A stretch of 64,000 nucleotides of DNA from Candidatus Omnitrophota bacterium (GTDB taxonomy: Bacteria; Omnitrophota; Gorgyraeia; JAFGGP01), in the NCBI GenBank assembly GCA_016930485.1, contig JAFGGP010000021.1, positions 12,452 through 76,451 of the forward strand, given 5' to 3'. Below, one piece after another: positions 25,082 to 46,815 of this stretch. The notes below the pieces were generated by a model, which searched no databases, had not been told where the DNA came from, and saw nothing but the letters and a program-made list of their open reading frames with translations. Both the position numbers and the translations under genes were made by a program. Position 1 is the first letter of the stretch. Every line of letters begins with the position of its first letter.

Positions 25082-25086
25082 TCAAT

Positions 25087-25409
25087 TGGCTCCCCCGGTA
25101 GGACTCGAACCTACGACCTAGTGGTTACAGTTATCCCTAAGTTTCCTTAGAGGCTGGACTATATCATTGCCCTTTCTCAAAGAGAGGGGGGCACCAGGCG
25201 CTTCCCCTTTAGTCGACACTAAAGAGTACTTCCTTGCGGAATAGTCTCTGCACCTTCCCTGAACCACGTAGGGTTCAGGGCTTGGCTCAGGATTACCGTG
25301 CCTTTTGCAAGTTTAGGCTTTCCTGAATTCACCCGGTTTTCACTCTACGGTTTCCCATAGAGGCTGCGCTTCGCACAGCCACCCGCTCTACCGACTGAGC
25401 TACAGGGGA
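25087..25409 (-). tRNA. tRNA-Asn(GUU) interrupted by a group I intron in the anticodon loop
   Basis: Exons 25409-25375 (35 nt) and 25127-25087 (41 nt) join to TCCCCTGTAGCTCAGTCGGTAGAGCGGGTGGCTGT|TAACCACTAGGTCGTAGGTTCGAGTCCTACCGGGGGAGCCA. This gives a full cloverleaf, anticodon loop CUGUUAA, G73 and an encoded CCA. Confidence 0.85.
25128..25374 (-). ncRNA. group I intron (IC3-like, 247 nt, no ORF)
   Basis: P1 pairs exon GGCUGU with intron GCAGCC, giving U-G at the 5' splice site. P2 is CUCUAUGG-GAAA-CCGUAGAG. The core strings GAGCCAAGC and GAAGGUGCAGAGACUA are present, and the intron ends in G. Confidence 0.85.
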
Positions 25410-43430: not shown

Positions 43431-44465
43431 TTAATACTCTTCTTTCCACTGGGCGGAGCTTATGGTATCGGTACCACCGATAAAGTGCGGAGGAGGATTG
43501 GTAACGATCGCCGGGTCATAGATACAGGTGATGTCCTCTGCAGAGTTCATATTCAAATTATTGCCGGCGATGATGGTTCCCAAAAAGGTCACGCCGCTCA
43601 GATTGTTCATGATGACATTATTGACATTGAGTGCGGCATAAACCAACCCCTGAATGGTTGAGCTGGAAAGTTGATTTGCATTTATGTTGCCGCGTGAGAT
43701 AAGGGCCGGATAATTATCGACGGGATCGATTGTGATTCCCGACGACTGCCCTAAATCAATGTTGCCCTCGGCAATGATCGTCCCGTTAATCGTTACCCAG
43801 CTTTCGACCGTGGCATTGCCGGTAATATACCAGACACCGTTGTAGCTGCCGCCCGACAAAAAGGTATAATCGCCGGTGATGCGCTGGGTCGATGGTGCGT
43901 CATTATAGTAGCCTGTAAAATCGACCGTGGGAAGCGGTACACCCGAACTTGGTTCGATATCCCCGTCCACATCGATCTCTCCCATATGGACCGAGCCGCT
44001 ACCCGAGCTGACGTCGCCCTCGAGTAAGCCGTCGGTATTGCTCATATTGATATTATTGCCCGCGTGTATGGCATAATTGAACGCCTCCGGGGGGGCGCCC
44101 GGGGTAAGAACAAAGGACTGGACAACCGTCCTCGAGGTCTCCCCATAGGTGCCTGTGGACTCGACATCAACGCTGTGTGAACTTACGTTGGCGAACTCTA
44201 CCGAAAAACTTCCCGGCCCCAGCGACCTGGAAAAATCAGTGACGTCGCTCCAGTTCGAATCAGAGTCAAGCTGCTCCTCGAGCGCACACTGGATCCCCGC
44301 CTCGGCAAGAAATAACGCCTGGGTCGCTTTATAGGTGTCCTCTGCCATATGGGTATCGACGACAAAGCAGGAGCCCGCGACGAATGCCATCGTTGAAAGC
44401 GTCAACATGATAAAGACCGTTATCATGATTGACATCCCTTTGTCGTTGAGAACCAGGCGTTTCAT
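43431..44465 (-). CDS. PilX/GspK-like large minor pseudopilin with an Asn/Gly-rich repetitive C-terminal domain
   Basis: MKRLVLNDKGMSIMITVFIMLTLSTMA...QALFLAEAGIQ (PilX_N-like). This is followed by GNNINMSN, GNIDLG, GNINAN and GNNLNMNS repeats. Confidence 0.7.
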   Translation of the reverse strand: MKRLVLNDKGMSIMITVFIMLTLSTMAFVAGSCFVVDTHMAEDTYKATQALFLAEAGIQCALEEQLDSDSNWSDVTDFSRSLGPGSFSVEFANVSSHSVDVESTGTYGETSRTVVQSFVLTPGAPPEAFNYAIHAGNNINMSNTDGLLEGDVSSGSGSVHMGEIDVDGDIEPSSGVPLPTVDFTGYYNDAPSTQRITGDYTFLSGGSYNGVWYITGNATVESWVTINGTIIAEGNIDLGQSSGITIDPVDNYPALISRGNINANQLSSSTIQGLVYAALNVNNVIMNNLSGVTFLGTIIAGNNLNMNSAEDITCIYDPAIVTNPPPHFIGGTDTISSAQWKEEY

Positions 44466-44473
44466 AGTGCACC

Positions 44474-44959
44474 TCACCCCGCGTTCCTGAGCCACACCCT
44501 GTTCTGCAGGGAAAATGAACCGGTGGAATTTTGAAGCGTGACGGTAACGATAACCGAACGGATATCGATGATGTTGCTGGTTGTATTATTGTTGCCGTCG
44601 CGATAAGCGAACGACAACCCTGCGGTACTGTCTAAATTCGATGCGAGCACATAGCCGTTCCTTAAAAGATTGCCCCCGCTCTGTTCAAACCGGATATGCG
44701 TTCCGTGTGCATCGTTAAATTCAAGGACCCCCGAAGTCGCCACCGTGATATCGCCGCTCCCCCCGATTTGCCGTACCTCTCTGGCTACCTTGAACATCGA
44801 GGTACGCGCCTCGGCAATGACATCTCTCCGCTCCATAACAAAGGTCCAGGAATCGGCAGCGCTTGCCAAAAGCGGTGCCAGACTCCCTGCAAGGATGCCG
44901 ACAACAACGATCACCAGAATAATTTCTACAAATGTAAAACCCGCGTTCCCCTTTTTCAT
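44474..44959 (-). CDS. prepilin-type N-terminal cleavage/methylation domain protein (PilW/GspJ-like)
   Basis: MKKGNAG|FTFVEIILVIVVVGILAG has the class III signal with Glu at position +5. Confidence 0.8.
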   Translation of the reverse strand: MKKGNAGFTFVEIILVIVVVGILAGSLAPLLASAADSWTFVMERRDVIAEARTSMFKVAREVRQIGGSGDITVATSGVLEFNDAHGTHIRFEQSGGNLLRNGYVLASNLDSTAGLSFAYRDGNNNTTSNIIDIRSVIVTVTLQNSTGSFSLQNRVWLRNAG

Positions 44960-44971
44960 ATCTTCCCCACT

Positions 44972-45385
44972 TTACTCAACGTTCAGATAATCGGTCCTCA
45001 GGCCCACCAGCTGTACGCACACCGACCCTCCATGGTATACCCGGACAAGTACCCGTTTATACTCGGTGGCGCTACCCGACGGGGTATTTAAGGAGCTCGA
45101 GGCGACATAATTGCAAACAACGTCGTAACTGTACGTACTGAAGGGTGCTGAAAATGACGTTTGGCTGACGTTGCCGACCGCAAGAAAAGACTTGTTAAAG
45201 ATCTCCTCCATCTTTGCCTCTGCGAGTGAGGTCGCAACGCTCTTGATTTCGTTTGTCTGAGCCTGGTATGCCCCCTCCCCCAGTGCGATGGCGATCGGTA
45301 CAATACAGATACCGATGATTACGATAACGATGACCAGCTCTACCAAAAAATACCCTTTCTGGAAACGAACTGTATGCGGCTTCAT
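44972..45385 (-). CDS. prepilin-type minor pseudopilin (GspI/PilV-like)
   Basis: FQKG|YFLVELVIVIVIIGI. Confidence 0.72.
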   Translation of the reverse strand: MKPHTVRFQKGYFLVELVIVIVIIGICIVPIAIALGEGAYQAQTNEIKSVATSLAEAKMEEIFNKSFLAVGNVSQTSFSAPFSTYSYDVVCNYVASSSLNTPSGSATEYKRVLVRVYHGGSVCVQLVGLRTDYLNVE

Positions 45386-45876
45386 TGCAGCGACACCCTC
45401 CCTGTCTCAGGTTCCACCTGAACCGTCGTCGAAAAATCAGAGGAATACTGCAGTGTTATAACAGCCGCCGTGGTAAGCAGATTTCCGTAGGCGTCGCATG
45501 GTTCTCCTGCGGCATTGAATTCCAGATTATATCCAAAATTGGTGCTGATCAGATTAATGCCTTTGTACTGATCGATATTCGGATAGCTTATAATCATATT
45601 GGTTCCGGTAATCGGGCTTACTACCTTATCGCTGGTCACCTGCTTGTAGAGATAGTACTGCTCGTTTGCCGTATCAAAATAAATGCCGTGGGGAACGCGC
45701 CTGGTTACTGCCAACTCGTGGGCATACGCGATATCGGAACCGAGCTGCCTGGCGACACTTCTCAATTTCAGCACGGGATAAGGACGGGTATACGACACGG
45801 CCGTCGCGGCCAGGACAAAAATAATAGACATCGCTATAATCAACTCAATAAGTGTTACGCCTTTATTGGCTCGCAT
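45382..45876 (-). CDS. GspH/FimT-family minor pseudopilin
   Basis: MRANKG|VTLIELIIAMSIIFVLAA...LRSVARQLGSDIAYAHELAV. RBS GGAGAG. Confidence 0.8.
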   Translation of the reverse strand: MRANKGVTLIELIIAMSIIFVLAATAVSYTRPYPVLKLRSVARQLGSDIAYAHELAVTRRVPHGIYFDTANEQYYLYKQVTSDKVVSPITGTNMIISYPNIDQYKGINLISTNFGYNLEFNAAGEPCDAYGNLLTTAAVITLQYSSDFSTTVQVEPETGRVSLQ

Positions 45877-45923
45877 GCTGCTCTCCGCTGGTTTTTTTAA
45901 TAGTCACCATACCCACCTCAAAT

Positions 45924-45953
45924 AAAAAACCCATTCTTCGAATAGAATGGGCC
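45924..45953 (-). terminator. intrinsic terminator (riboswitch expression platform)
   Basis: The minus strand reads CCCATTCT-ATTCGA-AGAATGGG followed by TTTTTT, 48 nt upstream of the pseudopilin start codon. Confidence 0.8.
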
Positions 45954-45971
45954 ATAAAAGTTCTTCACTTT

Positions 45972-46068
45972 TTCGGCAACCGGCTGCCTTACCCTTGCAC
46001 CCCGCTCGGTTCAGGGAGTAGGCCCTTGGCTTTGCGTCCCATTCTTTCGAATAGTTTGCCTTTATCGA
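45972..46068 (-). promoter_or_regulatory. c-di-GMP-I (GEMM-I) riboswitch aptamer
   Basis: The minus strand reads AAAGGCAAACUAUUCGAAAGAAUGGGACGCAAAGCCAAGGGCCUA...GCGGGGUGCAAGGGUAAGGCAGCC. This matches the GGCAAAC / GAAA-tetraloop hairpin / GGGACGCAAAGCC core of the Vc2-type aptamer as I recall it. Confidence 0.85.
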
Positions 46069-46296
46069 CGTTCTAATTGTATAGTTTTTCTCTACTTATA
46101 AGTATGCCATATATTATTATAGAAAACAATACAGGGGTTAAAGGAAGTGGGGTCTATTTGTATCTTTTTCCTAATAAAGAGGTTACGGTATATTGTGCTA
46201 TTCCCATCCATTCCTCTTTCACGGCTGTCCCGGTCCAGGCAGCGATGCTTGACCTCTGCCTGTGGCATTGCTAGAATATGTCAAAAAGGGGACTGT

Positions 46297-46815
46297 ATGG
46301 GAACAATAGAGATTGTCGTGGGCGATATCACTACCCAAAACGTGGATGCTATCGTCAATGCCGCCAATACCTCGCTTCTCGGCGGCGGCGGGGTTGATGG
46401 TGCGATTCACCGTGCGGCCGGCCCGGCGCTTCTTGAGGAGTGTCGAAAATTCAACGGCTGCCCCACCGGAGAAGCGCACATTACTCAAGGATATAATCTC
46501 CGCGCATCCTTCGTCATCCATACGGTTGGTCCTGTGTGGAACGGGGGAAATCACGGAGAAGATATTCTTTTAGCCAGCTGCTATCGCGCCGCGCTTGAGC
46601 TTGCCGGGAAAAACAATGTTAAAACGATCGCCTTTCCCTCGATCAGCACCGGGGCCTATCGTTTTCCTGTTATCAGGGCATCCCGGATCGCCCTCACAGA
46701 AATAAAGAAATACCTTGCCACGCACGCCCTTCCTGAAAAAATCACTATCGTCTGCTTTAACCAGGGTATCTACGATATCTACTGCGAGACTGCAAAAGAG
46801 ATTGACGGTATATAA
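46297..46815 (+). CDS. ymdB: macro-domain protein (O-acetyl-ADP-ribose deacetylase, YmdB-like)
   Basis: [39 protein letters not shown]...[14 protein letters not shown]. The ATG at 46297 follows AAGGGG. Confidence 0.9.

Follow-up and report, generated by a model that had tools for sequence, protein, structure and literature searches.

A c-di-GMP class I riboswitch from an Omnitrophota genome whose terminator copies an aptamer hairpin: a predicted OFF switch before pilin-like genes

Among the described class I riboswitches for cyclic di-GMP (c-di-GMP), Cd1 (Cdi-1-3), which lies upstream of the flgB operon of Clostridioides difficile, is an OFF switch in which c-di-GMP promotes termination (PMC9262584, PMC6366702). 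Researchers have also found cyclic-dinucleotide riboswitches linked to pilus genes, namely Cdi-2-4 (class II, pilA1) and the Geobacter pilM element (GEMM-Ib, responding to 3'3'-cyclic GMP-AMP, cGAMP), both of which are ON switches (PMC6366702, PMC9262584). In the ZTP riboswitch, it is an internal hairpin of the aptamer, P3, that the expression platform invades and that the ligand makes resistant (PMC10907184). Here we describe an element of the same class as Cd1, located upstream of pilin-like genes at 45924..46068 on the minus strand of a 64,000-nucleotide stretch of DNA (hereafter the window; from contig JAFGGP010000021.1 of assembly GCA_016930485.1), whose source genome is named a Candidatus Omnitrophica/Omnitrophota metagenome-assembled genome (MAG) in databases. 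With Cdi-2-4 and Geobacter pilM it has in common that a cyclic-dinucleotide riboswitch and an intrinsic terminator stand before type IV pilus-related genes, but those two systems belong to another class or bind another ligand and are ON switches, whereas this element is of class I and the G20 type and is predicted to be OFF. We propose, with a probability of roughly 0.55, that it is a strand-exchange transcriptional OFF switch in which, according to the folding predictions, the first, GAAA-capped hairpin of the aptamer serves as the switching helix instead of the usual closing helix. That the operon is turned off when c-di-GMP is high, by whichever route, we consider likely.

The original prediction, made from the sequence, had recognized a GEMM-I aptamer in this leader and proposed a check with the Rfam model. 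All the aptamer strings that it listed, namely AAAGGCAAAC, CUAUUC-GAAA-GAAUGG (46054..46039), GGGACGCAAAGCC and the final ...GCGGGGUGCAAGGGUAAGGCAGCC, are present on the minus strand of 45700..46300, and cmscan matched the c-di-GMP-I (GEMM-I) family RF01051 at 45972..46070 (-) with 75.2 bits against a gathering threshold of 35 (E 6e-13), covering model positions 1-87 of 87. The interval 45924..46068 fits the element, and the Rfam match begins 2 nt further upstream. In the alignment all upper-case consensus positions of RF01051 are matched; the parts AAAGGCAAAC, CUAUUC-GAAA-GAAUGG and GACGCAAAGCC align to them. The core consists of two adjacent hairpins joined by GGCAAAC ... GACGCAAAG, the first of which is capped by a GNRA tetraloop. 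The family match identifies the aptamer as a true sensor of the c-di-GMP class I type and an ordinary RF01051 member, for which ligand binding is predicted. A permissive Rfam rescan of the region gave nothing further of note, both variant families of the clan scoring lower than RF01051, and weak matches to SNORA29, Arrc14, anti-hemB and others in the region were discarded as far under their thresholds.

For comparison, GEMM-I leaders were gathered by a generic core pattern from viral contigs (81 loci) and from species-representative genomes (120 loci); 182 non-redundant leaders were surveyed in general, 188 were used for hairpin strength, 41 had a stringent terminator, and 44 were used for capture of the terminator 5' arm. 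The first aptamer hairpin, CUAUUC-GAAA-GAAUGG (46039..46054, -), is the proposed switching helix and has a predicted energy of -4.2 kcal/mol; it was called P1a in the original prediction, and we take it to be P2 in the structural nomenclature of Vc2 and Cd1. The second aptamer hairpin (45978..46031, -) carries an 11-nt distal insertion relative to the Rfam consensus and, according to the cmscan alignment, a variant tetraloop receptor, CCUACU...UAAGG where the consensus type is CCUAAG...UAUGG. By a heuristic regular-expression count over the 182 sampled leaders, the 5' half CUACU occurred once and the 3' half UAAGG in 8. Vc2 of Vibrio cholerae, the structural reference for RF01051, has the same two-hairpin junction, the same GAAA tetraloop and, by alignment, the G20/A47/C92-type contacts, whose equivalents here are 46060, 46033 and 45976; their roles in ligand contact are assigned from the Vc2 structures. 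In contrast to Vc2, this element has a weaker first hairpin, a variant receptor and the insertion in the second hairpin. Vc2 is not known to have a comparable terminator platform.

The assignment to the c-di-GMP type in the original prediction agrees with the G at the specificity position 46060, which is not the A20 of the cGAMP type. Position 20 influences selectivity but does not act as a hard filter, and changes in the lower part of the first hairpin can alter the preference (PMC9262584), which would allow 3'3'-cGAMP or another dinucleotide to be the ligand. However, besides the G at the G20 equivalent, the junction is GAC and not GGC or UAU, and the best clan member is RF01051 and not the GGC variant that matches two metagenomic leaders discussed below (L202 and L203), so that a ligand other than c-di-GMP appears improbable. 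Membership in the cGAMP-selective GEMM-Ib group was rejected on the G at 46060, and membership in the c-di-GMP-I-GGC variant family (RF03167) on the GAC junction and the better match to RF01051.

Downstream of the aptamer, the terminator that had been described as CCCAUUCU-AUUCGA-AGAAUGGG-U6 is found at 45951..45924, with CCCAUUCU at 45951-45944, AUUCGA at 45943-45938, AGAAUGGG at 45937-45930 and U6 at 45929-45924. The whole intrinsic terminator (45924..45953, -) comprises a stem of 8-10 bp, a 6-nt loop, and U6 followed by AUUU; it is a G+C-containing stem-loop directly before a U-tract, as an intrinsic terminator should be. A consensus scan reported it as a 10-pair stem at 45953..45928, and its predicted energy is -10.3 kcal/mol for 8 bp and -13.0 kcal/mol for 10 bp. 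As had been supposed, the terminator is self-contained and able to coexist with the folded aptamer. In Cd1, too, a class I aptamer and a separate intrinsic terminator coexist, and both compete with an antiterminator (PMC9262584). Since a complete terminator that does not overlap the aptamer is the same arrangement as in this OFF switch, we count it for the OFF reading. In the opposite proposal, c-di-GMP would prevent the terminator and activate the pilin-like genes, as do the class II switch of C. difficile and the cGAMP switches of Geobacter. The known pilus-linked cyclic-dinucleotide riboswitches are indeed ON switches (PMC6366702, PMC9262584), but here terminator and aptamer share no nucleotide, and no pairing was found that would let the folded, bound aptamer hold either terminator arm, the arms of the first hairpin being paired with each other. 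An ON switch is therefore highly improbable in our judgement, and the predicted repression would be opposite in polarity to the known pilus-linked switches.

The terminator loop and 3' arm are, as the original prediction observed, a near-copy of the first aptamer hairpin. The direct repeat CUAUUCGAAAGAAUGGG (46054-46038) and CUAUUCGAAGAAUGGG (45945-45930) agrees at 16/17 nt, the sole difference being one deleted A. Compared with shuffled terminators the copy reached a score of 14 (z = 9.3), and no aptamer-to-terminator copy in the other leaders of the stringent-terminator set (41 in all) was as long, the next being 9 nt. Within the leader AGAAUGGG occurs twice and CCCAUUCU once, and the single CCCAUUCU can pair with either copy of AGAAUGGG. 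A more extensive duplication of the aptamer 5' half, to which the copy would belong, was considered as well and rejected, as similarity in the flanks was unconvincing.

Prefix folds and constrained folds identified the switching strand as CCCAUUCU, A and UUCGAA (45937..45951, -). It has two mutually exclusive predicted partners, AGAAUGGG at 45937-45930, which gives the terminator, and UUCGAAAGAAUGGG at 46051-46038, which gives an antiterminator of 14 bp with one bulge (duplex energy -17.5 kcal/mol). Since UUCGAA, the copied tip, is palindromic, the loop copy pairs with the aptamer hairpin as well, which brings the antiterminator to 14 bp in place of 8. In prefixes whose 3' end runs from 45944 to 45931, the minimum-free-energy (MFE) structure opens the first hairpin and pairs UUCGAAAGAAUGGG with CCCAUUCU-A-UUCGAA, which is better by 1.1-5.5 kcal/mol than the best closed-hairpin structure of the same prefix. 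Once the terminator 5' arm and loop are transcribed, the predicted probability of the antiterminator pairs in these prefixes is 0.78-0.96 at 15-50 C. The full-length leader is isoenergetic, with -47.3 kcal/mol for the terminator and -47.2 kcal/mol for the antiterminator (49%/46% of the ensemble at 37 C), and below 37 C the terminator state dominates at full length (0.87-0.95 at 15-25 C). About 14 nt of nascent RNA are concealed in the polymerase, and therefore the prefix ensemble is the relevant one at the U-tract; there, the antiterminator is predicted to win unless the first hairpin is held shut. Heuristic direct-path (findpath) barriers are ~9 kcal/mol from the closed hairpin to the antiterminator and ~16 kcal/mol from the antiterminator to the terminator, and the antiterminator could thus serve as a kinetic trap. 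The energy available from ligand binding, estimated as RT ln(1+L/Kd), is 4-7 kcal/mol for nM-pM dissociation constants (Kd) at 1 uM ligand, a range that includes the 5.5 kcal/mol needed at most to offset the antiterminator.

These predictions lead us to propose a mechanism in which the aptamer (45972..46070) would fold first, after which the terminator 5' arm and loop (CCCAUUCU-A-UUCGAA, 45951..45937) would emerge and choose a partner. In the absence of ligand, the switching strand would invade the weak first hairpin and form the 14-bp antiterminator with UUCGAAAGAAUGGG (46051..46038), so that the terminator 3' arm would have no partner as the polymerase passes over the U-tract, and transcription would continue into the pilin-like operon. 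Binding of c-di-GMP would keep the first hairpin closed by way of the junction and the tetraloop docking, and the free switching strand would pair with the downstream AGAAUGGG, stopping transcription at 45929..45924. The OFF logic of the original prediction is in this way supported by folding, as a prediction, with the antiterminator extended from 8 to 14 bp. While the identity and anatomy of the aptamer, the alternative pairings and their predicted energies come directly from our analysis, the OFF polarity depends on ligand binding, its protection of the first hairpin and the kinetics of invasion, all of which we infer.

The same folds could also be read as those of a ligand-binding aptamer next to a constitutive or leaky attenuator outside its control, or of a decaying element in which the repeat is a relic of local duplication. 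The terminator state is the full-length MFE even without ligand and dominates at lower temperature, and the tetraloop receptor is a rare variant, both of which would suit such a reading. But the aptamer scores 40 bits over the family threshold with its conserved positions all intact, the energies of the two states agree to within 0.1 kcal/mol while the ensemble of the prefixes switches over almost entirely, which is unlikely to be an accident, and a relic duplication ought to reach into the flanks, where similarity was unconvincing. We therefore regard an uncontrolled or decaying attenuator as unlikely.

Several points nevertheless weigh against the first hairpin being invaded. The switching strand would have to open a local hairpin that has already formed ~90 nt upstream and offers almost no single-stranded toehold at its base, and the time for invasion is only ~14 nt of transcription; the ~9 kcal/mol barrier is a heuristic value, and invasion may be too slow. 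All energies are nearest-neighbour energies that ignore tertiary structure. Published work assigns the role of stable scaffold to hairpins 1 and 2 and that of labile switch to the closing helix (PMC9262584), and according to a review the switching sequence lies most commonly in the first helix, P1 (PMC10907184). The receptor variant is rare, and hence ligand-dependent docking that protects the hairpin is not assured. No orthologous leader that would allow a covariation test of the pairing was found in the collections searched, where the analogues L134, L202/L203 and L205 have other targets and L036 alone shares the target. We also rejected the idea that the first hairpin is unusually weak in order to be invaded: at -4.2 kcal/mol it is weaker than a consensus-like hairpin (-10.3 kcal/mol), yet 29% of 188 leaders have one as weak or weaker.

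The survey places this layout among a minority of designs. Complementarity between the 3' arm of the first hairpin and the downstream region had a z of -5.2, the most extreme among the 182 leaders. Before its own 3' arm exists, the terminator 5' arm is captured by the aptamer 3' half in ~30/44 leaders, and capture by the 3' arm of the first hairpin was seen only in this leader and in L036. The capture energy of the 5' arm here is -10.8 kcal/mol, which ranks 6th of 44 and lies in the range of classical designs, with 8/10 of the partners located in the first hairpin. The GEMM-I leader L036, from an IMG/VR contig (13761..13842, -), directs its 5' arm at the 3' arm of the first hairpin plus GACGC; it thus has the same antiterminator target as this leader, but is without the long copy. 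In another GEMM-I leader, L089 (6250..6337, -), the 5' arm targets the conserved junction GGACGCAAAGCU. Evidently, OFF-type platforms of class I attack several different parts of the aptamer, and the layout described here is a minority strand-exchange expression platform of a known class. Hairpin mimicry as a general property of GEMM-I was rejected, since both exact-word and duplex surveys show it to be rare.

The prevalence of capture by the aptamer 3' half also bears on a more classical OFF route. Between aptamer and terminator lies a middle hairpin, GCCGAAAAAGU-GAAGA-ACUUUUAUGGC (45951..45977, -), which is part of the MFE and centroid structures and of both constrained folds; it sequesters the aptamer 3' tail including the C92 equivalent, adjoins the terminator, and shares 1-3 nt with the extended terminator stem. 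On the classical route, the ligand-free tail GCCGAAAAAGU would pair with ACUUUUAUGGC (45977..45951) and take the G-G-C base of the terminator, reducing it from 10 to 7-9 pairs; bound ligand would hold the tail so that the full terminator forms, and the hairpin copy would be a by-product of the origin of the terminator. This is consistent with the presence of the middle hairpin in every predicted fold, with its use of the same strand as in Cd1 and in L202/L203/L205, with the ~30/44 sampled terminators just mentioned, and with the predicted weakening of the terminator on loss of its base, the 10-bp stem having -13.0 kcal/mol and the 7-bp stem -7.0 kcal/mol. However, the overlap amounts to just 1-3 nt, and the global minimum of the constrained folds contains both the middle hairpin and a 9-bp terminator, so that the two are not mutually exclusive; moreover, the 16/17-nt copy (z 9.3) is left unexplained. 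The middle hairpin was accordingly rejected as a real antiterminator and kept as a minor rival to which we give a small chance, although it may contribute to switching. Hairpin invasion and the classical route make different predictions: with compensatory changes of the terminator arms (CCCAUUCU to CCGAUACU and AGAAUGGG to AGUAUCGG), hairpin invasion would predict constitutive termination, and the classical model normal switching.

If the first hairpin is indeed the switching helix, the element would differ from its described relatives in the part of the aptamer that is opened. In the P-A-T-H layout of Cd1, the antiterminator is formed with the 3' strand of the aptamer, and the pocket is unfolded from that side, whereas here the first hairpin would be opened, ~90 nt upstream; furthermore, Cd1 targets flagellar genes and not pilin-like ones, and the 16/17-nt hairpin copy is a feature of this element. 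The likeness to the ZTP riboswitch is that an internal hairpin, not the closing helix, is invaded. In the ZTP system, however, the aptamer is of another class and the invader is the terminator itself, adjacent to its target, giving an ON switch, whereas here the invader would be an antiterminator acting over ~90 nt in an OFF switch. Strand exchange has been called the least understood riboswitch mechanism in a review (PMC10907184). The platform described here is short and almost perfectly bistable, and its antiterminator would open a hairpin usually deemed a rigid scaffold; it would be a compact natural model for studying how an invader from a distance can outcompete a local hairpin in the time of ~14 nt of transcription.

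Relatives of the leader suggest how such platforms may be built. A c-di-GMP-I riboswitch in another Omnitrophota MAG (L134; JBARQV010000027.1, 4258..4400, 79.8 bits) has a visibly related leader, with CGAUAAAGGCAAAC, GUUGCCGAAA and a tail AUGGGUUUUUUAUUU...GAGGU in common. Its terminator, GACCCAUAGUCU-GUCC-AGGCUAUGGGUU, copies the 3' strand of its second hairpin, AGGCUAUGG, on the tetraloop-receptor side, and its second aptamer hairpin and terminator hairpin can merge into one long alternative helix. The copy in L134 is thus 9 nt of the 3' strand of the second hairpin, whereas here the first hairpin is copied, and L134 precedes an open reading frame (ORF) that runs off the 8-kb locus (>1100 codons), not pilins. 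From these sequences, a recurring principle would be that a switching strand can pair either within the aptamer or with a similar sequence in the terminator, while leaders differ in which aptamer strand is used. We tentatively speculate that expression platforms in this Omnitrophota lineage originate when an entire hairpin of the aptamer is copied into the terminator (hairpin 1 in this leader, hairpin 2 in L134), that the palindromic tip UUCGAA yields a 14-bp invader whose landing site takes in the GAAA tetraloop, and that the ligand step consists of docking that hides the tetraloop, although this combination is doubtful at present. If it held, ligand control of a c-di-GMP-I switch would act on a helix of the scaffold and not on the closing helix. 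The leader could also show expression platforms arising by duplication of aptamer parts.

A metagenome scan with the pattern GGCAAAC, TGCCGAAA and AUGGG-U6 returned four matches, of which L204 was spurious and L202, L203 and L205 have classical antiterminators on the aptamer 3' tail. The pattern forces AUGGG-U6, and therefore the shared CCCAU terminator arms are no evidence of homology. L202 (789..867, -) and L203 (615..693, +) are metagenomic members of the c-di-GMP-I-GGC variant family (RF03167) with a GUAA loop, in which the classical antiterminator CUGCCGAAAGGAUGG / CCCAUUCUCGGCA is followed by the AUGGG-U6 terminator.

The predicted regulated operon of four pilin-like genes (43431..45876, -), defined from the ORF list, Pfam and homologues, begins 47 nt downstream of the riboswitch element on the same strand; a divergent macro-domain gene lies upstream of the leader. 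ORF 1 (45876..45382, -; 164 aa), ORF 2 (45385..44972, -; 137 aa) and ORF 3 (44959..44474, -; 161 aa) are pilin-like, and ORF 4 (44495..43431, -; 354 aa) is PilX-like. The pseudopilin operon named in the original prediction was borne out by the prepilin N-terminal methylation motif N_methyl (PF07963), which is above the cut-off in ORFs 1 and 3 and sub-threshold in ORF 2, and by homologues of ORF 4 that are annotated PilX / PF14341. ORF 1 is a singleton among 5.8 billion proteins, with no orthologues found there. About 30 homologues of ORF 4 were found at 30-36% identity, and twelve of their loci were fetched, most of which are MshE-T2SSF-pseudopilin-PilMNO clusters; no GEMM-I was detected at these loci by Rfam (L206-L210) or by a loose regular expression (L206-L217). 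The closest of them, in other Omnitrophota MAGs (L206, L208, L209 and L217), are clusters with an MshEN (PF05157) ATPase, T2SSF, pseudopilins and PilM/N/O, often beside response regulators. MshEN is described as a c-di-GMP-binding domain (PMC11731258). The pilus machinery of Omnitrophota may thus sense c-di-GMP via a protein, and this MAG may put a stand-alone minor-pilin set under a riboswitch. For this uncultured phylum, which has been little studied, our analysis adds a c-di-GMP-I riboswitch, and it links c-di-GMP to minor-pilin-like genes that form a set of their own.

A promoter-like site, TTAACC, 17 nt and AATAAT (46113..46141, -), was assigned with low confidence from a consensus scan, which found 6 sites against 3.2 expected in shuffles and is thus weak evidence; this consensus match is the sole promoter evidence for the leader. 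An alternative -10-like TATAAT at 46121..46116 (-) fits better than AATAAT. Directly after the terminator, a 15-codon upstream ORF read from the sequence, MVTIKKTSGEQHASQ* (45863..45910, -), has its own GAGGUG Shine-Dalgarno sequence and overlaps the start codon of the first pilin-like gene at 45876; it might represent translational coupling or a leader peptide. A similar tail, GAGGU...GGUG, follows the terminator in L134.

Elsewhere in the window, a group I intron (RF00028, 85.4 bits, 25135..25385), within 25083..25407 (-), interrupts a tRNA gene, absent from the ARAGORN predictions, in its anticodon loop. The exons are UCCCCUGUAGCUCAGUCGGUAGAGCGGGUGGCU(GU) and (U)AACCACUAGGUCGUAGGUUCGAGUCCUACCGGGGGAGCCA; joined as CUGU|UAA at putative splice sites they would give the loop CUGUUAA, which looks like that of tRNA-Asn(GUU).

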